NCBI RefSeq assembly: GCF_044647545.1
Contig: NZ_CP172818.1
DNA length: 64,000 nucleotides
Source: Escherichia coli
GTDB taxonomy: Bacteria; Pseudomonadota; Gammaproteobacteria; Enterobacterales; Enterobacteriaceae
Reading direction: 5' to 3' (one strand)
Part shown: one piece after another, positions 4,933 through 54,743 of the stretch
Layout of the letters: the number at the start of each line of letters is the position of its first letter
Numbering within the stretch: the stretch's first letter is position 1
Notes under the pieces: model-generated
Database searches by the model: none
What the model was told of the DNA's origin: nothing
The model's input: the letters and a program-made list of their open reading frames with translations, nothing else
Made by a program: the position numbers and the translations under genes

Positions 4933-5190
4933 TTAGACATCCGTGACAATTTTGCGAAAATTAAGGAGATGTTATGACACAGTCCAATCGGATCACTGCA
5001 TCATCACCAGTGATCTAAATACTTCACAGCCATTCTCGGTCGCAGGTATCAAGCTTTTCAGGATTCCACAAATATTGTAACCCTGACGTCTAATTTGGTT
5101 ATATAACATACTGCCCCAACTAACGTAAGGTAGGCACAGCCTTAATCAAGGTTTTGGTTTTCAAATAGTTCAGAGCTGAGACCGCCAACC

Positions 5191-5238
5191 GCACTATGGC
5201 ACTATGGCACTATGGCACTATGGCACTATGGCACTATG
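5191..5238. repeat. Tandem repeat (GCACTATG) x6
   Basis: Six perfect head-to-tail copies of an 8-bp unit read directly, between yfjM and the yfjL upstream region. Confidence 0.95.
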
Positions 5239-5291
5239 GCACCGCCAGCGATTGTAATCACACTTGATATTATAAAACACAGTTGCACGCA

Positions 5292-7134: not shown

Positions 7135-7435
7135 AACTCTTCTTTCTAAACGAACCAGTATAGAATTCGCCCTTTTGGCATGATATTAACTTGTCCAATA
7201 TGATCAAATAGCATTAACCCCCCCTCACAACGTCCTGCATAGGGAACACGTTTTCCCCTGTGCACCCACGACTAAATTTCCCCCCCTTTAAACTTCTCAA
7301 TAATGTCACCAATTTTCTGGAAATCCTATGATGCCTTTCCCGGTAAATGGTGCTGTGAGTTCAGAAAGATTCTGCAATCTATGTGCATTGAAAAAATCTT
7401 CAGATAGATATCATTCTCCTGAACAATCCGATGAA

Positions 7436-7470
7436 CGGCAGAACCTCGCGGTTCTGCCGTTTTTGTTTTA
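7436..7470 (+). terminator. Terminator-like hairpin in the yfjP leader
   Basis: CGGCAGAAC...GTTCTGCCG stem followed by TTTTTGTTTTA, about 20 nt upstream of the yfjP RBS; a diverged copy recurs at 15269-15300. Confidence 0.5.
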
Positions 7471-7488
7471 CTTTTCAGAGGAGTGGTG

Positions 7489-8352
7489 ATGAAAAATTTT
7501 GAAGTTCTGCAGCCACTACAGAACTCCCTTTCCGGTCTACCGCTATGGGTATCTGAACGTATATTGCAGCAGATAAATCAGTTAACCCACTACGAGCCAG
7601 TGATCGGCATCATGGGTAAAACTGGGGCGGGAAAGAGTAGCCTTTGCAATGCCCTGTTTGCCGGTGAAGTATCGCCGGTCAGCGATGTAGCGGCCTGTAC
7701 ACGTGATCCTTTACGCTTTCGCCTGCAGATTGGAGAACACTTTATGACCATCGTGGATCTGCCCGGCGTGGGCGAAAGTGGCGTTCGCGATACCGAGTAT
7801 GCTGCGCTGTACCGCGAACAACTTCCCCGGCTCGACCTGATTCTGTGGCTGATTAAGGCTGATGATCGGGCACTGGCGACTGATGAGCATTTTTACCGTC
7901 AGGTGATTGGCGAAGCATACCGGCATAAGATGCTGTTTGTTATCAGCCAGTCAGACAAAGCTGAACCCACCAGCGGTGGAAATATCCTTTCCACAGAGCA
8001 GAAACAAAATATCAGCCGCAAAATCTGCCTGCTGCATGAGCTATTCCAGCCCGTGCATCCGGTGTGTGCCGTGTCGGTTCGCCTGCAGTGGGGACTAAGG
8101 GTGATGGCAGAGCGGATGATTAAGTGTCTGCCGCGTGAGGCCAGCAGCCCGGTAGTAGCGCTACTGCAACATCCCTTTCGAACAACGGTAGCCCGGGAGC
8201 AGGCACGTGACGATTTCGGTGAAACCGTAGGTGCCATACTCGATACGGTAAGCACCTTTCCCCTTATTCCCGCCCCGGTGCGGACCATTATTCAGGCCGT
8301 GCGTTCCTCGGTGGTGTCAGTGGCCCGCGCTGTCTGGGATTTCTTCTTCTGA
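7489..8352 (+). CDS. yfjP: Prophage GTPase, 287 aa
   Basis: G1/Walker A GKTGAGKSS and G3 DLPGVG motifs; ATG at 7489 preceded by GAGGAG (the listed ORF begins 6 nt earlier at an in-frame GTG). Confidence 0.85.
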   Translation: MKNFEVLQPLQNSLSGLPLWVSERILQQINQLTHYEPVIGIMGKTGAGKSSLCNALFAGEVSPVSDVAACTRDPLRFRLQIGEHFMTIVDLPGVGESGVRDTEYAALYREQLPRLDLILWLIKADDRALATDEHFYRQVIGEAYRHKMLFVISQSDKAEPTSGGNILSTEQKQNISRKICLLHELFQPVHPVCAVSVRLQWGLRVMAERMIKCLPREASSPVVALLQHPFRTTVAREQARDDFGETVGAILDTVSTFPLIPAPVRTIIQAVRSSVVSVARAVWDFFF

Positions 8353-8443
8353 GTGTTTAATTCTGCCCTATTATTCTCCGAGCCCTGTCGCAAGTGCGGC
8401 AGGGCTTTCTTTATTTGTTTTACCCATACTGAGGAGTCTGCTT

Positions 8444-9263
8444 ATGACCCGTCTGGCTTCGCGCTTTGGCGCTGCAAACCAGATACGCCGTGACCGTCCG
8501 CTGACACATGAAGAACTGATACGCCATGTACCCAGTATTTTTGGGGAAGACCGGCACATCCCGCAGTGAACGGTATGCGTACATTCCCACCATTACCGTC
8601 CTGGAAAATCTGCAGCGGGAAGGCTTTCAGCCGTTCTTCGCCTGCCAGACCCGTGTGCGCGACCCGGGCCGCCGGGGATACACAAAACACATGCTGCGTC
8701 TGCGGCGGGCCGGAGAGATAAACGGAGAACATGTCCCTGAAATTATTCTGCTCAACTCTCATGACGGTACCTCCAGCTACCAGATGCTGCCGGGTTACTT
8801 CAGGTTCGTCTGCCAGAACGGGTGCGTCTGTGGCCAGTCTCTGGGGGAAGTGCGTGTTCCACACCGGGGAAATGTAGTGGAGAAAGTTATCGAAGGGGCT
8901 TACGAGGTGGTGGGCGTGTTTGACCGGATAGAGGAGAAGCGTGATGCCATGCAGTCGCTGGTCCTGCCGCCACCGGCACGCCAGGCGCTGGCACAGGCGG
9001 CACTGACTTACCGTTATGGTGACGAACATCAGCCCGTCACCACCGCCGACATTCTGACGCCGCGACGCCGGGAGGATTACGGTAAGGACCTGTGGAGCGC
9101 ATATCAGACCATCCAGGAGAATATGCTGAAAGGCGGGATTTCCGGTCGCAGTGCCAGAGGAAAACGTATCCATACCCGGGCCATTCACAGCATTGATACC
9201 GACATTAAGCTCAATCGCGCATTGTGGGTGATGGCAGAAACACTGCTCACGCAACTGCAGTAG
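8444..9263 (+). pseudogene. yfjQ: DUF932-family protein, frameshifted near codon 41
   Basis: ATG at 8444 with GAGGAG RBS encodes MTRLASRFGAAN... for 41 codons, then TGA at 8567-8569; the remaining 245 aa continues in the +1 frame; total span 820 nt is not a multiple of 3. Confidence 0.65.
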
Positions 9264-9479
9264 ACGTTTCATGTTGCCACGTTGTTAATATCGGACACCA
9301 CCTGTCCGCATCGCTATGTGCTCGTGTGCCTCAATCCCCCGGTTATAGCTTTTAACCCCCGTTACATCTGGCTTTTGCAGAAATAAAAAATAGTTTCTGC
9401 GTTGTCCATACCCTGTCCGCCCCCCTCTTTAAAGTAATCACATCATTTTCAGTCAGTTAACTTTCCTGGAGAATCTCTC

Positions 9480-10181
9480 ATGACACAGGCAGAACGCCGC
9501 CATGACCGGCTGGCTGTCAGGCTGTCACTGATAATCAGCCGTCTGGTTGCGGGTGAAACGTTGAGCGTGCGCAAACTGGCGGCTGAGTTTGGCGTGTCAG
9601 TGCGCACGCTGCGGCGTGATTTTCGTGAACGACTGATGTATCTGGACCTGGAGTATCAGTCCGGATACTGCCGCTTACGCACTGCTGGCAGTGAGATGCA
9701 GATGGTGCCCGACGTGCTTATCTTTGCCCACCGCAGCGGGCTGGCCGGGCTTTTTCCCGGCCTTGACCGCCGTCTGGTGAATGCACTGCTGATGTGCGAT
9801 GAGTCTCCCTGCGTGATAGCACCAGCCAATCCGGTTCCTTCGCCTTCAGGAGCATTGTCTTTCTGGAGACTGATTCAGGCCATTACCGGGCGCAGGCGGG
9901 TGACGCTGATTGCAGAGGGGCGACGCTGTGAGCGCCTAGCTCCCTGCCGGTTACTCATCCACCAGCAGACCTGGTATCTGGTGGCTGAACACGAAGGGCA
10001 TATCGCCGTATTCACACTTGATGAAATCCATCTGATTCAGCCTTTGCAGGAGACTTTTCGCCGCAATGACAGTCTGTGTCGCCTGGTTGAAGACCCGGTC
10101 TTCATTCAGGCCTTACCCCATTTTCGCTTTATCCAGCATTCACTGCTTACGTTTGTTCCGGCCGACAGCCCACCGGAATAG
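9480..10181 (+). CDS. yfjR: HTH plus WYL-domain transcriptional regulator, 233 aa
   Basis: N-terminal HTH-like segment ([21 protein letters not shown]) and a WYL motif ([11 protein letters not shown]) visible in the translation. Confidence 0.85.
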
Positions 10182-10221
10182 CGCAGGCGTTGTTATCAAC
10201 CCGGCAACATGGAGGAGCCCA

Positions 10222-10458
10222 GTGCCCGTTATTGCCATTATCGCCATTGTTATCATCGTCATCATTCTGAACAAAACCGGAGTGTCCGACAGCCTCACGG
10301 CCCTGACACTTGCAACCGTTGCCGCACTACTGACGGGAGGTGGTGCAGCCGGTGCTGCCAGTGTCGCGCTGACGCCGTTCGTCGGCGTGCCGGTGGGTAT
10401 TTTTGTGGGAATTTATGTCTTTGCCAAAGTGGTTCGTCTGATTTCAGGGAAAAAATAA
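10222..10458 (+). CDS. ypjK: Small hydrophobic membrane protein, about 78 aa
   Basis: GTG start at 10222 preceded by GGAGGA; two hydrophobic segments; stop overlaps the yfjS start (TAATG). Confidence 0.55.
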   Translation: MPVIAIIAIVIIVIILNKTGVSDSLTALTLATVAALLTGGGAAGAASVALTPFVGVPVGIFVGIYVFAKVVRLISGKK

Positions 10459-10901
10459 TGAAACGTAAAACACTACCTCTGCTGGCGCTGGTTGCCACCT
10501 CTCTGTTTCTGAGCGCCTGCGATGACAGGAGTGATGACCTCAAAGCTATCAGTAAATTTAAGGACCTCACGCCCCCGCGCTTCAGCGATGTGGTCAGCCG
10601 TCAGGATGATGTCAGCGAAGAATGGTCACAGGTTGGCTTCTCATCCGGTCTCACCCTGCAGGTCTTACGTACCCGTGAGTCGCCCGATGGTTGCGAGGGT
10701 GGCAGTTACTACTATCTGGTAGATATGGAGGAGAAAACCGTCCAGCCGCTGATGAATGCGCTTTGTATTGCCGACAATATCAAACTGGAATACCACGAAG
10801 TTACGGACCCGTATACGAAAGAAAAATACTTCGAATATTCCCATGACGGCAAACTGATGGGACGGCTGCTGATACCGTCAAACCCTGATAACCGGGAATA
10901 A
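10458..10901 (+). CDS. yfjS: Lipoprotein, 147 aa
   Basis: Signal peptide with lipobox LSAC; ATG at 10458; the longer listed ORF from 10209 is an upstream extension in the same frame. Confidence 0.8.
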   Translation: MKRKTLPLLALVATSLFLSACDDRSDDLKAISKFKDLTPPRFSDVVSRQDDVSEEWSQVGFSSGLTLQVLRTRESPDGCEGGSYYYLVDMEEKTVQPLMNALCIADNIKLEYHEVTDPYTKEKYFEYSHDGKLMGRLLIPSNPDNRE

Positions 10902-10924
10902 AAACAACGAGAAAGGAGACATAA

Positions 10925-11392
10925 ATGAAAATACGTTCACTAAGCCGGTTTGTACTGGCAAGTACAATGTTCGCCAGCTTTACAGCCTCTGCGGTCCCCG
11001 GACTCTGGCAACAGGGGTACGGTCAGGGCAATGCGGAATACAGTGTGACGGATGCCAGCGGAAAGATGTTTACCATCAACTGCACGGGAAATCCGGACCA
11101 GAACGGTATTTACCAGCACTCGGTTTTTCTGATCCTCGCCGGGGATAAAACGGTCAGCTCGCATGATGACAGTACCGGCATCACAGTGGTGATGGACCAT
11201 AAGCAATATGCCATTCCCTCAACCCTTGGCTGGCGTAACGGAGATAATGCCTGGTTCAGCTTCATCATGGATATCCGTAAGGCCCGGCAGTTCGACGTCT
11301 ACGTCAATGACCAGAAAGTTGGATCGTTTAACCCTGATGTTCGGAATGCACAAAAGGTCCTGCCAACATTAGCGGACTGCACTAACGACTGA
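10925..11392 (+). CDS. yfjT: Secreted/periplasmic protein, 155 aa
   Basis: Intact ORF with N-terminal signal peptide; RBS GGAGA upstream. Confidence 0.8.
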   Translation: MKIRSLSRFVLASTMFASFTASAVPGLWQQGYGQGNAEYSVTDASGKMFTINCTGNPDQNGIYQHSVFLILAGDKTVSSHDDSTGITVVMDHKQYAIPSTLGWRNGDNAWFSFIMDIRKARQFDVYVNDQKVGSFNPDVRNAQKVLPTLADCTND

Positions 11393-11787
11393 CGGCTGCG
11401 CCTTCCCTACCATAACAACCCTGATTGCCTCCGGCGGTCGGGGGTTTCTTTTTTCTCCTTAATCTCCAGAGGTAGGCCACGTACTTTCGAACGATGAGCG
11501 CAGTGGTCAGTTTTTTTCAGATATATTTATCTTTTTTTGGCTGTAAGCTCCGCTGTGAGCGCAGGCTGTGTGAAAACTCCTGATCACTTCTTGGTCTAAG
11601 CGATGGTTTCATATGATCAACCATTCTTGATAAACCCATGCGACGAACTGACTTTTTCATTAAAATTAGAAATATACGAATGAATACTGCGGATACCGAC
11701 ATGGCCAATCACATTCAAGGACAAGGCAGGCACCAGGTGACATTACTCCCTGATGCACTGGATGATTTTGTCACTGAAGATAACTTA

Positions 11788-11931
11788 AGTAAGTTTAATC
11801 AGTTCATCACGGGTCGGTGGCATATCGAGATAATTAATTATTGTCGGTTCGTTGCCGTTGTTATGAAGCATCTCCAGCGTGTTGCGTGAGGTGCCACAGG
11901 CCGGGTTGTGATAGATGGTAATGTTGCTCAT
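11788..11931 (-). pseudogene. Arsenate reductase ArsC N-terminal fragment (47 codons)
   Basis: Reverse-strand translation MSNITIYHNPACGTSRNTLEM... matches the ArsC N-terminus and then hits a premature stop. Confidence 0.7.
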
Positions 11932-11943
11932 ATCAGTATCTAA

Positions 11944-12935
11944 TTACAAAGTGACAGAGAGCCGCCACGCCAGCGCGGCCAGAGTGACAAACAGCACCGG
12001 CACAGTCATGACAATGCCGGTACGGAAGTAATATCCCCAAGTGATTGTCATATTTTTCTGGGCAAGCACATGCAGCCACAGCAGAGTTGCCAGACTGCCA
12101 ATCGGGGTGATTTTCGGGCCTAAATCACAGCCAATCACATTGGCATAAATCATTGCCTCTTTGACGACGCCAGTCGCCGTACTCCCGTCAATCGACAGCG
12201 CACCAATCAGCACCGTCGGCATATTGTTCATCACTGATGAGAGAAATGCCGTCAAGAAGCCGGTGCCGAACGTCGCTGCCCATAACCCCTTGTCTGCCAG
12301 CAGATTCAGCACGCCAGACAGGTACTCCGTGAACCCTGCATTGCGCAGGCCATAGACCACGATGTACATGCCCAGTGAGAAAATAACGATCTGCCATGGC
12401 GCACCGCGCAGGACTTTTCCGGTGTTGATCGAATGACCTCTTTTCGCCACCACAAACAGCACTGCTGCGCCAGCGGCCGCTATCGCACTGACCAGGATTC
12501 CCTGCGGCTCCAGAAAGAAGAAACCGACAAGCAGCAATAACAGGACAATCCAGCCCGCCCTGAAGGTTGCCAGATCCTTGATCGCACTGGCAGGCGTCTT
12601 CAGCAGCGAAACTTAATACGTTGCCGGAATAACTCTGCGAAAGAAGAGATACAGCATAATCAGCGTGGCCGCAATCGCTGCCGCATCCACGGAGATCATA
12701 ACGGAGGCGTACTGCGCAAAGCTCAGACCGAAGAAGTCCGCCGAGACGATATTCACCAGGTTAGAAACAATGAGCGGCAGGCTGGCCGTATCTGCAATAA
12801 ATCCTGCAGCCATGACAAAGGCCAGTGTCGTGCCCTGGCTGAACCCAGTGCGATCAGCATCGCAATCACAATCGGCGTCAGGATCAGCGCGGCGCCGTCA
12901 TTGGCAAACAACGCATCAACAGCGGCACCGAGCAA
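11944..12935 (-). pseudogene. Arsenite efflux pump ArsB, N-terminally truncated and frameshifted
   Basis: Three reverse-strand ORF fragments (197, 66 and 60 aa) in different frames, all ArsB-like membrane sequence; the N-terminal roughly 100 aa is missing where AT-rich DNA begins. Confidence 0.8.
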
Positions 12936-13094
12936 GACTTTCCAGGTGAACAGCGCTCTAGGTAGGAACTTTGTCGTTGATAGAGTCTTCAGCCATCAAC
13001 ACTGTATCGAGTAATGAAATTGGTTGCTAGAAAGTCGATGATTTGTTGCGTATGATTAAAAATCAACCTTAAAGGCTTTATACATGGATTTGCT

Positions 13095-14798
13095 ATGGCT
13101 TTTGTATCAGAAAGAGAAATTGTAAGAAAGATATTTAGCAAAAAAATTGACTTTACGATCTTGGCATTTTTCTATATTTCCTCTATTTTTTTTCTTCTTT
13201 GTAGTGGCGTTCTCTTTCAATATTTTACCGCTGCCTTCACAAAAGGTAATTGTTATGAATGCTCAATGAAACTTGATTACATAAAACAATTTTATTTTTC
13301 ACTGGAAACCGCATGGTACCTCATATCTGCTGTTGCAGTATTTATTGCATCTGTTTTTATACAGCATAGAATTAAAGCTTATTTAACATTATTAGCTATT
13401 ACATGGATTGTACTAACAATAACAGATGTGGCGTTAATACACGCCTTAGACAATATAGCCATGAATAATATTTTGTTAAATATACTATATAATCTTTTTG
13501 GGGCGATTTTATTGTCACTGTTTATGTGTTTATCAAATTCCCTCCTTTTCCACCTTAATAAGATAAAACATATTCCAATGATTTTATCGGCAATGATTCC
13601 ATTAGTTTCCGCAATAATAATAGCCATACTCATAACCGCTGTTATATATTTATTGTTTGCCCGGCAGGCGGTAGAGATTGAGATGGATATATCTGAAGGT
13701 TCAGACATCGCATATGTAGGTGTAAAAGATAATGAGGAATCATTTGGGTTTTTAAATGATAAAAAAACAGACACACCAACGTATCTGGATGTAATCAAAA
13801 ATGGTAGTTTGATATATAATGATACACAGGGTTTAAGTGGTGCTGATATTTATATTGTCTCCGGTTGTTATGCCCTTCCAGATTTACTTCGCAATGTACC
13901 GCTTGATGCTAAAAAATCTTTTCTGAATGTAAAAAAGCTAGAAATCACACAGAAACTTCCAATGATGGGGTTCATACAAGGTGAATCCGCTGATGTGATG
14001 CCTAAAGCAGCATCCAGGTTAAGTTTGAGCAAGCAAGATGATAAATTTATGCTAGCCTCAAGTGTTACTGACTCTCAAATAAAATTTAAATCAAACAATG
14101 CACAATTGATGGTTGCTTTCGCATTTATGCCAATAACAACGAATGGTATTTTACATGATTATACATACGATATAATAATAAATGATAAAAAATATAAAAT
14201 TGAAAATCATGTTGCACCTCTATCTAGGCTTGATAAAAATAAGAAGATGAAGTGTGAATACCAGCAAATATCGGATTTAACAAATACGTATAACATTAAT
14301 GCAAATTACTTAACGGGTTTTTTACTTGTCCTAAAACCAGATGATATTATTAATTACAACAATAGCCCTTCCGTACTACTCAAGACTGATTTTGCGTTCT
14401 ATAAAAAAACATACCAGAAGCTTGATAAAATATATGATGACATAAGCAATGGAAAATTATCTTCACTGAGAGCAACAGGTATCTCCCAGTTTAGTATCAA
14501 CGGGAAACATTTGTCGTTAAGGCCAGAATCGGAGATTATTATTTCTGAAGGGAGTTTGTATGGACTAGTTAATAAAAGCAAAAAAATCAAAATATATGGC
14601 ACAGCAGATCTTGTTTTTGTTGATAACAAGATAATGAACCTTCGTAAAATAACTTATTTGCAATCTAAGCTAGAAATTTTTGGTTCTTCTATTATGGATA
14701 TATTAAAGTATATATTTGGTTTAGGTCTGCTAGCAATTTCTATAAAATTCATTCATTCTTACTTTAAGAATGATGTGAATGAAAATTTATTCTTGTAA
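13095..14798 (+). CDS. yfjW: AT-rich inner-membrane protein, 567 aa, function unknown
   Basis: 567-aa ORF; strongly hydrophobic N-terminal about 190 aa followed by a hydrophilic Asn/Lys-rich domain; very low GC. Confidence 0.75.
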   Translation: MAFVSEREIVRKIFSKKIDFTILAFFYISSIFFLLCSGVLFQYFTAAFTKGNCYECSMKLDYIKQFYFSLETAWYLISAVAVFIASVFIQHRIKAYLTLLAITWIVLTITDVALIHALDNIAMNNILLNILYNLFGAILLSLFMCLSNSLLFHLNKIKHIPMILSAMIPLVSAIIIAILITAVIYLLFARQAVEIEMDISEGSDIAYVGVKDNEESFGFLNDKKTDTPTYLDVIKNGSLIYNDTQGLSGADIYIVSGCYALPDLLRNVPLDAKKSFLNVKKLEITQKLPMMGFIQGESADVMPKAASRLSLSKQDDKFMLASSVTDSQIKFKSNNAQLMVAFAFMPITTNGILHDYTYDIIINDKKYKIENHVAPLSRLDKNKKMKCEYQQISDLTNTYNINANYLTGFLLVLKPDDIINYNNSPSVLLKTDFAFYKKTYQKLDKIYDDISNGKLSSLRATGISQFSINGKHLSLRPESEIIISEGSLYGLVNKSKKIKIYGTADLVFVDNKIMNLRKITYLQSKLEIFGSSIMDILKYIFGLGLLAISIKFIHSYFKNDVNENLFL

Positions 14799-15268
14799 CG
14801 CATTTGGCTCCAATTGGAGCCTTTTTATGACTATTTATTAAAATATCCTAAGTTAAGCCTGTTTTTAAAGCAGGCTTGAGCGTGAAGCGGACACTCATAC
14901 CTGCTTTAAAGTGGCGTTTTTGTCGTTACCCATACCTATATTTTCTGTTGTTTAACTGCCAGAACTGAGCGGTTGAAAAGCCAGAAATATGCCGAGCCAG
15001 CGGCATGGAAGCGCCAGCAGCTGTTGAATGGAGTACTGTAGGCAAATGGTGCCGTAACCGGCTTTCGTACTGAAAGGTTCTGTCTATCCCATCCCTTCTC
15101 TTGTATCTAACATTTAGTTGTGAATAGCTACTGTAAATGCCCCTACAAAATGAACCATTATTTTTAGAGGGCGTCTGGCACTCCAACTTCCGCTTTTGGC
15201 ACAGAACGGCCTATCAGCAATATAAAAGCATTCAGATATATATCATTTCTACAAACATACCCGATTAA

Positions 15269-15300
15269 CGGCAGAATCTCAGGATTCTGCCGCTTTTTTA
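15269..15300 (+). terminator. Terminator-like hairpin, second copy of the yfjP-type leader
   Basis: CGGCAGAATC...GATTCTGCCG stem plus T-run; flanks align with 7399-7492. Confidence 0.45.
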
Positions 15301-15321
15301 TTATTTTTCAGGGGAGTAGTA

Positions 15322-15695
15322 ATGAGCAACTCTGAAGGTTGGTAGTCATTTTAGCAAACGCTTTCTGGTCTGCCGCAGTGGGCATCGGCTGATTGCGTAG
15401 CAGGGCCACTGGTATCTGCCGGTATCACCGACATTAACATTGAAGACGACCAGGGCATTCACGTCCGCCTGATAGTTCGTGATGCCGAAGGTCGGATGGT
15501 TGGCGGGCATGGAACTTTGAACCGGACGCCGGTGAAGGTTTTAACCGCTATATCCACAGGTCAGGCATCCGCACCGACACCTTCCCCCGCTGACTCCGAA
15601 TCATTTACCAGCAACATTTCACCTTCCCAAACGCGCTTTATTACCTCATACGCCAGCCATCGCCGCTGGCGTTTTTTATTCACGGAGACATACCC
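15322..15695 (+). pseudogene. Degenerate remnant beginning with a yfjP-like N-terminus
   Basis: ATG after the duplicated leader gives MSNSEGW then stop; downstream frames retain ...QTLSGLPQW..., resembling YfjP residues 12-20, but no intact ORF. Confidence 0.4.
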
Positions 15696-16154
15696 ATGAC
15701 AACACAGACACAGTACGACCTCGTACCCGCTAACGGATCCGAATTTGAGTTGAGCGTAACGCAGGTACCCGATGAACAGCATATCCGCTTCTGGCCGCAG
15801 CACTTTGGCACCATCCCGCAGTGGATAACGCTGGAACCGCGCATTTTCGCCTGGATGGACCGCTTCTGTGATGAGTACTGCGGGGGTATCTGGTCCTTTT
15901 ACACGCTCAGCAATGGCGGAGCGTTTATGGCTCCTGATGCTGACGGTGACGATAAATGGCATTTGCTCAACGGCATGAATGGCAATGGTGCGGAAATGAG
16001 CGCGGAAGCCGCAGGTATCGCTGTCTGCCTGATTGAATATAGCCATCACGCCTGCCTCACCGAATGCGATGCCATGACGGAGCACTATTACCGCCTGCGG
16101 GATTACGCTCTGCAGCACCCTGAATCCAGCGCCATTATGCGCATTATTGATTAA
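15696..16154 (+). CDS. yfjX: Antirestriction protein (ArdB/KlcA-like), 152 aa
   Basis: 152-aa ORF recognised as YfjX-family antirestriction protein. Confidence 0.85.
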   Translation: MTTQTQYDLVPANGSEFELSVTQVPDEQHIRFWPQHFGTIPQWITLEPRIFAWMDRFCDEYCGGIWSFYTLSNGGAFMAPDADGDDKWHLLNGMNGNGAEMSAEAAGIAVCLIEYSHHACLTECDAMTEHYYRLRDYALQHPESSAIMRIID

Positions 16155-16162
16155 GGATACTC

Positions 16163-16645
16163 ATGATGGAACAGTCACTCATCCCACAGACACCGGTACT
16201 TCCACTGACCGCACAACGCACGGTAAAACGCGCCTTAACGCTGCTTGACCGACACCTGCGCGAAACAGGCGTGGCATTCACCTCCACTCAGGCTGCTCGT
16301 GACTGGCTGAAGCTGAAAATGGCGGGGCTGGAGCGTGAAGAATTTATGATGCTGTATCTGAACCAGCAGAACCAGTTGATTGCCCACGAAACCCTGTTTG
16401 CCGGTTCTATTAGCAGTACCGAGGTACATCCCCGTGAGGTGGTCAAACGCGCCCTGTATTTCAATGCAGCAGCAGTGATACTGGCGCATAACCACCCCTC
16501 CGGCGACACTACTCCCAGCCAGGCAGATAAGACTATAACGCAGCGTCTGGTGCAGGCGCTTCAGCTCGTTGATATCCGTGTCCCTGACCATCTGATTGTT
16601 GGTGGCAGGCAAATCTATTCGTTCGCAGAACACGGTCTGCTTTGA
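16163..16645 (+). CDS. yfjY: RadC-like JAB-domain protein, 160 aa
   Basis: JAB/MPN metal-binding motif HNHPSGD visible in the translation. Confidence 0.85.
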   Translation: MMEQSLIPQTPVLPLTAQRTVKRALTLLDRHLRETGVAFTSTQAARDWLKLKMAGLEREEFMMLYLNQQNQLIAHETLFAGSISSTEVHPREVVKRALYFNAAAVILAHNHPSGDTTPSQADKTITQRLVQALQLVDIRVPDHLIVGGRQIYSFAEHGLL

Positions 16646-16854
16646 GGTATTACATGAGAATTATCAGTAAACGCCGGGCAATGACGATATACCGCCAGCA
16701 TCCTGAGTCCCGAATCTTTCGCTACTGCACCGGAAAATATCAGTGGCACGGTAGCGTCTGTCATTACACCGGCAGGGATGTTCCGGATATCACAGGAGTC
16801 CTGGCTGTGTACGCCGAACGCCGCAGGACCGCAGCGGACCGTATGCTTGACTGA
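16642..16854 (+). CDS. ypjJ: DUF987 small protein
   Basis: Small ORF overlapping the yfjY stop by 4 bp; conserved position ahead of the toxin-antitoxin pair; exact start uncertain. Confidence 0.65.
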   Translation: MRYYMRIISKRRAMTIYRQHPESRIFRYCTGKYQWHGSVCHYTGRDVPDITGVLAVYAERRRTAADRMLD

Positions 16855-16891
16855 TGAGTATCACCCTGAACTGACAATAAAGAGGTTATGA

Positions 16892-17209
16892 ATGAGCAAC
16901 ACCACATGGGGCCTGCAGCGAGATATCACGCCGCGCCTGGGAGCACGTCTGGTGCAGGAGGGCAACCAGCTGCACTATCTGGCTGACCGGGCCAGTATCA
17001 CCGGTAAGTTTAGTGACGCCGAATGTCCTAAGCTGGATGTGGTATTTCCACATTTTATCAGCCAGATAGAGTCGATGCTGACCACTGGTGAACTGAATCC
17101 CCGCCATGCCCAATGCGTCACCCTGTACCACAACGGTTTTACCTGCGAAGCCGATACTCTTGGTAGTTGCGGCTACGTATACATCGCTGTTTACCCCACT
17201 CAACGCTAA
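16892..17209 (+). CDS. yfjZ: CbeA-family type IV antitoxin, 105 aa
   Basis: 105-aa ORF recognised as YfjZ/CbeA family; immediately upstream of the cognate toxin. Confidence 0.85.
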
Positions 17210-17229
17210 CTAATTTCACGAGAGCAAGC

Positions 17230-17559
17230 ATGAACACTCTACCTGCTACAATTTCGCAGGCGGCGAAGCCCTGCCTGTCGCCAGTGGCTGTCTGGCAAAT
17301 GCTACTGACACGCCTGCTGGAACAACACTATGGCCTGACACTGAACGACACGCCGTTCAGTGATGAAACTGTTATTAAGGAACATATCGATGCTGGTATC
17401 ACTCTGGCCGATGCAGTCAATTTTCTGGTGGAAAAGTACGAACTGGTACGTATCGATCACAGAGGATTTTCGTGGCAACAACAGTCTCCATATATTTCCG
17501 TAGTAGATATTCTGCGAGCAAGGCGCTCTACCGGCTTGCTAAAAACTAATGTGAAATAA
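17230..17559 (+). CDS. ypjF: CbtA-family type IV toxin, 109 aa
   Basis: ATG at 17230 ([10 protein letters not shown]...); the listed ORF has an N-terminal extension. Confidence 0.85.
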
Positions 17560-47990: not shown

Positions 47991-48060
47991 TTATTCGGGC
48001 GGATAAGGCGTTTTTGCCTCATCCGCCGCTCTGTACACAATGCCTGATGCGACGCTGGTG
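47991..48060. repeat. REP-like palindromic elements after proX
   Basis: GGCGGATAAGGCG...GCCTCATCCGCC-type units. Confidence 0.5.
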
Positions 48061-48178
48061 CGTCTTATCATACCTACAAACCACACCGCACATTTCAACA
48101 ATCTATCTTTCATCCCATATTCATCAACATCCGCTATTATTGATTTCCAGCTTAATCATCACCTGATGAACAAAAATA

Positions 48179-54671: not shown

Positions 54672-54743
54672 GAAAGACGCGCATTTGTTATCATCATCCC
54701 TGAATTCAGAGATGAAATTTTGGCCACTCACGAGTGGCCTTTT
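54672..54743 (+). ncRNA. micA: MicA (SraD) small regulatory RNA
   Basis: GAAAGACGCGCATTTGTTATCATCATCCCTGAATTCAGAGATGAAATTTTGGCCACTCACGAGTGGCCTTTTT between luxS and gshA, ending in a terminator hairpin. Confidence 0.85.

Follow-up and report, generated by a model that had tools for sequence, protein, structure and literature searches.

The left end of the insertion sequence (IS) IS200 carries a terminator against impinging transcription, a stem-loop in the tnpA 5' untranslated region that sequesters the Shine-Dalgarno (SD) sequence, and the antisense RNA art200. IS10 and IS50 are said, from the work of Davis, Simons and Kleckner in 1985, to be protected from external promoters by fold-back inhibition of read-through transcripts. 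Herein, a non-coding leader was analyzed that precedes the GTPase family gene yfjP in a 64-kb window of Escherichia coli K-12 and is found a second time before the pseudogene ypjI. The first ~18 kb of the window are the prophage-like island CP4-57, from yfjJ onward, and window positions are converted to MG1655 positions by adding 2,760,221. We propose, with a probability of about 0.5, that the leader is a cis-acting promoter and attenuator/insulator of the backbone operon of CP4-57/CP4-6-type islands.

The initial annotation had noted that about 95 bp before yfjP recur at 70-80% identity further along the island. Pairwise alignment confirmed the repeat. The leader copies at 7399-7492 and 15231-15325 agree at 77 of 96 positions (80.2% identity; z = 13.1 over 1000 shuffles), and the second copy lies where it had been placed except that it starts at 15231, 2 nt to the left of the proposed 15233. 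The longer repeat, 7399-7553 against 15231-15386, extends ~60 nt into yfjP at 74.5% identity (z = 15.7). The 16-nt core TTCAGAYAKATATYAT occurs exactly twice in the window against 0.17 expected. Chance similarity between the copies is ruled out by z values of 13-16. The elements named for the first copy, a hairpin CGGCAGAAC..GTTCTGCCG at 7436-7459, a T-run at 7460-7469, GAGGAG at 7478-7483 and ATG at 7489, are right base for base. Each GTPase start had been described as lying behind a hairpin, and both copies do carry a canonical terminator-like hairpin between a promoter-like box and the SD; we infer that these hairpins are attenuator-like. The order of elements is TTGAAA-15-TATCAT with TTCAGA (box 1) in the spacer, an anti-SD segment with box 2, a GC hairpin with its T-run, and finally TTCAG (box 3), the SD and ATG (Table 1). 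Behind the second leader the sequence reads MSNSEGW*SF*QTLSGLPQW, exactly the GTPase relic that had been described. Only ~64 nt of the GTPase gene are kept in this copy, in agreement with the loss of the second GTPase.

The same leader stands ahead of GTPase family genes of the yfjP, ykfA and yeeP types across the Enterobacterales, both on chromosomes and on plasmids. Of 5426 complete E. coli genomes, about 570 have it at the sensitivity of blastn. It is also found in 10 other genera, including Buttiauxella, Kluyvera, Citrobacter, Siccibacter, Tenebrionibacter, Mangrovibacter and Cedecea, and in IMG/VR 'viral' contigs and metagenomes. Altogether, 56 distinct leader versions were collected. One of them belongs to K-12 ykfA in CP4-6, so that the suggested comparison with ykfA holds; yeeP in CP4-44, the other gene suggested, is 5'-truncated and has no leader because its 5' end was lost. 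The same layout in other sequences precedes GTPase genes whose proteins are ~50% identical, namely a yeeP type from E. coli/Klebsiella plasmid and metagenome records, and a Salmonella type. The neighbours 5' of the leader vary each time and are often on the opposite strand. They include rnlAB, perR, an operon of the cyclic-oligonucleotide-based anti-phage signalling system (CBASS), a heat-resistance island, IS elements, a kinase, ImmA and an mcr-1 context. Because the upstream genes differ every time, the leader marks the border between a variable cargo slot and a conserved backbone. This constancy bears on a simpler explanation, in which an ordinary terminator of the upstream cargo is followed by an ordinary ribosome-binding site, the conservation reflects the start of the module, and the anti-SD pairing arises incidentally. 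In its favour, the hairpin has the form of a textbook terminator, and in two loci (L024 and L026) the ATG lies ~99 nt behind the end of a co-oriented gene. Against it, the leader stays constant while the upstream genes change, often with a change of strand.

The core alignment of 50 distinct leaders shows no conservation upstream of -20 and an abrupt onset 19 nt before the core, at the equivalent of 7387. The conserved columns are, in order, ATT..AA, an A/T-rich stretch, TTCAGA, Y-A-K-A, TAT(C/T)AT, five variable bases and TGAA. Part of the leader set was gathered by a pattern fixing CAGAYAKATATYAT...TGAA, and the unbiased columns are only those upstream of it. The two A's of the -35-like hexamer are invariant (50 of 50), and the -10-like TAT(C/T)AT has five invariant positions. 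This 28-bp non-coding block is better conserved than the protein across lineages that are 50% identical in amino acids, which argues against an ordinary terminator and ribosome-binding site. Binding of RNA polymerase to the region was reported in vitro. By genomic SELEX (systematic evolution of ligands by exponential enrichment), RpoD holoenzyme sites were located, at spacer-level resolution, in all three K-12 spacers that bear the leader, rnlB-yfjP, perR-ykfA and yfjW-yfjX (Shimada 2014). The hexamers predicted in that work are TTGAAA-15-TATCAT for both yfjP and ykfA, and TTGGCA-19-TATAAA, falling at ~15196-15226, for the yfjW-yfjX spacer. The promoter-like block was not called by a consensus sigma-70 scan accepting spacers of 16-18, because its spacer is 15 nt. 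Readings of the block as a sigma-54, sigma-E or extended -10 promoter were dropped by eye for wrong spacing or missing bases.

Other identities of the leader were also considered. It has no match in Rfam 15 at gathering thresholds, and the possibility of a known RNA family was dropped for this reason. The sub-threshold matches are to unrelated terminator-bearing small RNA models (sbrA, 23 bits against a 45-bit cut-off) and to implausible small nucleolar RNA, microRNA and CRISPR (clustered regularly interspaced short palindromic repeats) repeat models. A leader peptide or upstream open reading frame was rejected as well. The 53-aa frame at 7328-7489 begins in non-conserved sequence, and no reading frame is kept across the leader because the alignment has gaps of 1-2 nt at five places. 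No mention of the leader was found in the literature on yfjP, ykfA, lfgA/B and DUF932 islands.

The hairpin itself is conserved as a structure. Over 34 yfjP-type sequences, 92.4% of cells are paired, and compensatory double changes occur at 5 of 10 pairs (for example, C-G in 21 and U-A in 11). The covariation score was reached by 0 of 500 shuffles and by no slid control. Of 53 distinct leaders, 41 have a hairpin of -10 kcal/mol or lower with 6 or more U among the 10 nt behind it. Three lineages carry unrelated stems at the hairpin site, each followed by a U-tract, with CCCCGC(C)...GCGGGG in the yeeP type and GGCAGCAG...CTGCTGTC in the Salmonella type. The U-tract after the stem is found on the sense strand only. 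The GC stem, short loop and adjoining U-tract of an intrinsic terminator are thus all there in the sequence, with the stem kept by compensatory change.

The strand of the hairpin is relevant to a further explanation, in which the leader is the target of a cis-antisense RNA. An opposite-strand small RNA from near the start codon would pair with the SD and the leader, in the manner of art200 of IS200 or RNA-OUT of IS10, and the conservation would reflect that RNA. The hairpin is equally good on both strands, and ~64 nt of dead coding sequence are kept in the second copy. Codons 2-8 (7492-7512) vary little among 29 yfjP-type genes, with synonymous differences of 0.24 against 0.45 downstream and codon 5 always GAA. 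At ykfA, antisense starts are also listed by Cappable-seq, with U00096.2 coordinates 268110, 268258 and, at a score of 4.9 and 2 nt before the ATG, 268186. Along the strand opposite ykfA (L020 6887-7127), there are four starts: one at codon 25, one 2 nt before the ATG, one directly behind TATCAT and a strong one ~165 nt upstream. These starts point to divergent or antisense transcription around the ykfA leader. Against the antisense explanation, the antisense strand of the early coding region has no -10/-35 pair in conserved register across lineages (judged by eye) and no U-tract after the GC hairpin. The ykfA starts are weak, and ykfA alone could be examined in the Cappable-seq data used, which cover the + strand of the first ~0.5 Mb. 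In addition, codons close to a gene start generally tend to show few synonymous changes. We regard this explanation as quite improbable.

A second pairing encloses the hairpin. In the RNAfold prediction, 7409-7423 (AUCAUUCUCCUGAA) pairs with 7474-7488 (UUCAGAGGAGUGGUGAU), and the SD is buried in this outer helix. The register of the helix shifts between lineages; for this reason RNAalifold on the plain alignment recovered the GC hairpin only, and an alignment-free test of arm duplexes was therefore applied. Cognate 5' and 3' arms form duplexes of -10.2 kcal/mol on average, compared with -8.0 ± 0.3 for permuted arms (z = -6.8, n = 52). Within the yfjP type z is -3.7, and the control pairing of the 5' arm with coding sequence gives z = -1.0. 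The arms change together, as in CAUCAC/GUGAUG, CAUU/AAUG, CAUAUAU/AUAUAUG, CAUCUCC/GGAGAUG, CUGAA/UUCAG and CGUGAA/UUCACG. When the 5' arm is included in the computation, -13..+3 has an unpaired probability of 0.37; leaving the arm out raises this value to 0.55. Two metagenomic leaders (L053 and L086) have no GC hairpin and retain the block and a plain anti-SD:SD stem. Because these hairpin-less leaders keep the stem, SD masking is predicted to be the most widely kept RNA feature, with the terminator in most, not all, lineages. These results also weigh against an ordinary terminator with an incidental pairing: the anti-SD covaries with the SD whereas the control region does not, and the lineage without a terminator still has the anti-SD stem. 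That explanation is, in our judgement, rather unlikely.

Pairing of box 1 with box 2 was rejected. In the yeeP type, box 1 is still TTCAGA although boxes 2 and 3 have co-varied to CGTGAA/TTCACG. One long hairpin, formed by box 1 and codons 4-5, is not supported within a lineage (z = -0.7, yfjP type). The latter pairing is relevant to an explanation at the DNA level, in which -90..+17 would fold as a long imperfect hairpin and serve, in the manner of the minus-strand origin of Ff or the plasmid element Frpo, as a single-strand origin or promoter for single-stranded DNA replication or transfer of the island. TTCAGA is complementary to TCTGAA in codons 4-5, and in vitro binding of RNA polymerase to the region has been reported. 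Among the island products is an 'inovirus Gp2 family' protein that is also annotated as rolling-circle replication-associated, and the module has leading-region-type genes (antirestriction, DUF932, RadC). With lineage controlled, however, support for the pairing between box 1 and the coding region is lost. The SD and start codon make up the paired 3' arm, an arrangement that points to translation, and the hairpin-less variants are short. A single-strand element is very improbable.

In the promoter and attenuator/insulator model, the leader would head an operon of the GTPase, DUF932 and WYL regulator genes and, further on, DUF905, antirestriction, RadC/JAB, DUF987 and a CbtA-type toxin pair. 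Control would be exerted in three layers. First, the 28-bp promoter-like block would bind sigma-70 RNA polymerase, and its invariant spacer TTCAGA may be the site of a regulator. Second, the hairpin and U-tract would act as an intrinsic terminator ~30 nt before the start codon. Third, the SD/start region would be masked by its complement, which lies between the -10-like hexamer and the hairpin. Transcription arriving from the cargo genes would be halted at the hairpin, and RNA that leaks through would carry the anti-SD and would not be translated. RNA from the leader's own promoter, with a predicted start at ~7421, would lack the anti-SD and would still meet the hairpin. Since this RNA would still meet the terminator, the operon is expected to be nearly silent unless a factor relieves termination.

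Several observations weigh against this model. The hexamers TTGAAA/TATCAT are conserved in register, but their spacer of 15 nt is off-optimal, and the block can also be read as a leftward promoter, ATGATA-16-TTGAAT. No transcription start is mapped in the block at yfjP or the second copy in the Cappable-seq (+ strand of the first ~0.5 Mb), SMRT-Cappable-seq (single-molecule real-time), ROSE and Kim 2012 tables searched. The sole ykfA-directed starts are weak and lie 265 and 506 nt upstream (Kim 2012). At the hairpin, which corresponds to MG1655 2767681-2767690, the Term-seq tables have no 3' end, maybe owing to low expression. In the Term-seq table examined (Adams 2021), no + strand 3' end falls in 2767064-2791241, an absence that low regional expression makes indecisive. 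A terminator downstream of the operon's own promoter demands a relief mechanism. At the RNA level, G-U (15 cells) and A-C (13 cells) wobbles in the hairpin are balanced, so the folding strand is not assignable from the stem alone; wobble pairs and sense-versus-antisense folding energies were uninformative for a strand call. Fixed-column covariation of the outer helix is modest, with double changes at 2-3 pairs only. Arm covariation is gone within the yeeP type alone (z = -0.9), where there is little variation.

The demand for relief of termination leads to a refinement of the model, in which the leader is a promoter-proximal antitermination cassette. TTCAGA within a constitutive promoter would load an island factor, and polymerase would be carried through the leader terminator and the internal terminators. 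The most conserved bases do lie between the -35-like and -10-like hexamers; the Pseudomonas aeruginosa AlpA element is likewise placed, with an intrinsic terminator just upstream of the first gene. In vitro, each of the three K-12 copies is bound by RNA polymerase without another factor (Shimada 2014), and AlpA-family and WYL regulators are encoded by the islands. Further terminator-SD-ATG junctions follow in a same-strand array (at 8380, 11419 and 15650). In the intact module of E. coli 504239 (L017), 13 terminator-like sites were counted against 5.0 ± 2.3 expected, and 12 of them are on the + strand, so nearly all are co-directional. Against this, a comparison of E. coli AlpA with the PDB matched no RNA-polymerase-bound antiterminator chain and returned only an unrelated 'AlpA family' entry, 8c3t (E = 0.56); the shared name AlpA is therefore no evidence. 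The P. aeruginosa motif GGGACGN5GGTA is unlike TTCAGA, and no abundant short terminated RNA is seen in Term-seq. We consider antitermination possible but unlikely. A still more doubtful extension is that the leader is the entry to an unrecognised processive-antitermination circuit. An island factor at TTCAGA would carry polymerase through the leader and internal terminators, and the GTPase-antirestriction-toxin module would be turned on as a unit, for instance when the island has been excised or transferred. The terminated leader RNA of ~45 nt might itself be a small RNA.

The two leader copies of CP4-57 were compared with the intact module of E. coli 504239. This 6.3-kb module contains, in order, the leader, GTPase, DUF932, WYL, ypjK, yfjS, ykfB, DUF905, antirestriction, JAB, DUF987, antitoxin and toxin. 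Window 7387-11455, from the leader to yfjT, matches the first two thirds of the module (L017 8989-13061) at 83.8% identity, and window 15442-17538, from DUF905 to the toxin, matches the last third (L017 13161-15256) at 81.1%. The second leader at 15231-15382 matches L017 9001-9153 at 85.6%, which is the beginning of the same module. Only ~100 bp of the canonical sequence are missing from K-12. What is duplicated in the K-12 island is the leader with 64 nt of the GTPase gene, and no gene family occurs twice. The island therefore holds one module's worth of genes, cut after yfjT by a 4-kb segment that ends in the second leader and the GTPase stub. The initial annotation had proposed assembly from two related elements. 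It was correct in that both copies go back to the 5' end of one module type, from which they have diverged to 75-80% identity, and in that two related elements must have contributed sequence; there are not two modules, and every gene family is single.

The wild strain I4 has the same island at ssrA. The break after yfjT is common with K-12, with homology continuing to 11561, 106 bp past the canonical break, and the leader-stub-DUF905 junction is the same, including the same first stop codon. The cargo differs. Slot 1 of K-12, upstream of the first leader, holds abpAB/yfjM/rnlAB, and slot 2 holds ars relics and yfjW. In I4, slot 1 (L019 16081-20424) has a CBASS-like set of SAVED, JAB/MPN, E1-like and nucleotidyltransferase genes upstream of leader 1, and slot 2 (L019 25019-31978), from yfjT to leader 2, has a run of HNH endonuclease and hypothetical genes. 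Identity between K-12 and I4 is 92-97% in the distal part and 84% in the proximal half. Because I4 shares both junctions and carries different cargo, the split is an inherited architecture with a second cargo slot and not a recent accident of K-12. The common ancestor of the two islands would have gained a segment ending in the second leader and GTPase stub, joined in frame to DUF905. This gain would have split the module, opened the second cargo slot and put the distal half (yfjX to ypjF) behind its own leader copy. CP4-57 would thus have two leader copies because an ancestral segment acquisition split the module. In a donor-lineage test, both half-modules were about equally distant (81-85%) from every other module, and two donors were not discriminated.

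Two leader copies (L031 and L032) were also seen on one 56-kb IMG/VR contig, IMGVR_UViG_2563366805_000004. Double-leader arrangements may recur outside the K-12 lineage.

In the pseudogene ypjI (b4644; 15322-15595), GTPase codons 1 to ~22, interrupted today by two stop codons, run in frame into DUF905 sequence, of which the C-terminal two thirds are present. Its annotation is silent on the GTPase start codon behind a full second leader, on the in-frame fusion and on the conserved non-coding leader family. The coordinates of these features, and of the other hairpins of the island, are given in Table 1.

Table 1 Features of the two leader copies and of the surrounding CP4-57 module in the window.
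Feature	Position	Strand	Remark
Promoter-like block, copy 1	7387-7414	+	-35-like TTGAAA 7388-7393; TTCAGA 7399-7404 in 15-nt spacer; -10-like TATCAT 7409-7414
Anti-SD segment (TCTCC) and box 2 (CTGAAC), copy 1	7415-7424	+	part of the 5' arm of the RNAfold outer helix (7409-7423 with 7474-7488)
GC-rich hairpin, copy 1	7433-7462	+	core 7436-7459, loop TCGC; 13 pairs, 7 GC, loop 4
T-run TTTTTGTTTT after hairpin, copy 1	7460-7469	+	this strand only
Box 3 (TTCAG), SD GAGGAG and start codon, copy 1	7474-7491	+	SD 7478-7483, start codon 7489-7491; pairs with 7409-7423 in predicted fold
yfjP, GTPase family gene	7489-8352	+	annotated from 7489; first ~64 nt (to 7553) within repeated unit
Terminator-like hairpin between yfjP and yfjQ	8380-8407	+	12 pairs, 8 GC
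Terminator-like hairpin right behind yfjT, closing proximal half-module	11419-11445	+	
Interrupting segment (second cargo slot), yfjU/yfjV arsenic-gene relics and yfjW	11456-15183		L017 homology ends at 11455 and is picked up again at 15442
Upstream extension of copy 2 (ACGGCCTATCAGCA...)	15184-15230	+	common to I4 and leaders of intact GTPase genes
Core block TTCAGATATATATCAT, copy 2	15231-15246	+	TATCAT at 15241-15246
Anti-SD/box 2, copy 2	15247-15256	+	box 2 is ACAAAC, a decayed form, in K-12 and an intact ATGAAC in I4
Hairpin CGGCAGAATC-TCAG-GATTCTGCCG, copy 2	15269-15292	+	10 pairs, 6 GC; compensatory C-G to U-A change relative to copy 1
T-rich tract, TTCAG, SD GGGGAG and ATG, copy 2	15293-15324	+	ATG 15322-15324
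GTPase 5'-end relic	15322-15386	+	85.6% identity to intact genes elsewhere
DUF905 C-terminal fragment, fused in frame to GTPase relic	15442-15595	+	relic and fragment annotated as pseudogene ypjI
Second hairpin, T-run, GGAG and ATG junction directly 5' of yfjX/lfgA	15650-15672	+	ATG 15696; stem also kept in L017 13366-13388

Two observations elsewhere in the window are recorded here. The abpA-yfjM spacer (5183-5246) has six tandem copies of an 8-bp unit, GCACTATG. The other Rfam matches, to naRNA4, MicA and a tRNA gene cluster (47997-48074, 54672-54743, 57656-58244), are ordinary K-12 features unrelated to the leader.

The module from the GTPase to CbtA is among the most widespread E. coli island backbones and occurs in CP4-6, CP4-44, CP4-57 and many pathogenicity and defence islands. 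The CbtA-type toxin-antitoxin pair that closes it was reported to be without self-regulation. A conserved, testable control region at the head of the module gives an experimental handle on when such 'cryptic' modules are expressed. The leader could also explain how the backbone tolerates the exchange of variable defence or resistance cargo upstream of it. The split shared by K-12 and I4 suggests that a second cargo slot can be opened by copying the leader, with the distal genes staying under the same control. The pseudogene ypjI is better described as the relic of an in-frame fusion of a GTPase start with DUF905 behind a full leader, and the leader is a candidate for a new RNA-motif entry.

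The paralogy of ykfA, yfjP and yeeP in the CP4-6, CP4-44 and CP4-57 modules, the paralogy of their toxin-antitoxin ends, and the pseudogene ypjI had been described before; the conserved non-coding leader family apparently had not. Among known control systems, the PR'-tR' arrangement of lambda and Shiga toxin (Stx) phages with Q, and PalpB-tB of P. aeruginosa with AlpA, resemble the leader in layout: polymerase binds the promoter unaided, a conserved element sits between -35 and -10, the first gene is directly preceded by an intrinsic terminator, and other terminators follow. They differ in that no short terminated leader RNA was detected for the leader in the Term-seq tables, and E. coli AlpA has no detectable sequence relation to the P. 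aeruginosa AlpA of the solved complex. IS10 and IS50 are alike in that the RBS (ribosome-binding site)-complementary segment of the leader lies upstream of its own predicted start, and therefore, in parallel with these elements, only transcripts from outside would be masked. Unlike the IS10/IS50 case, the parallel rests on a predicted start near 7421, and IS10 has no terminator at this place. The left end of IS200 appears to be the closest known system. As in IS200, the first gene of a mobile element would be guarded by a boundary intrinsic terminator and an inverted repeat that hides the SD, the own promoter would be weak, and an antisense start near the first codons may exist at the leader too. 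There is no sequence similarity between the two, and the functions of the leader are predicted. The leader would guard a GTPase gene heading a 12-gene island operon and not a transposase, and its putative terminator is nested in the loop of the SD-sequestering stem, whereas that of IS200 lies upstream of the stem.

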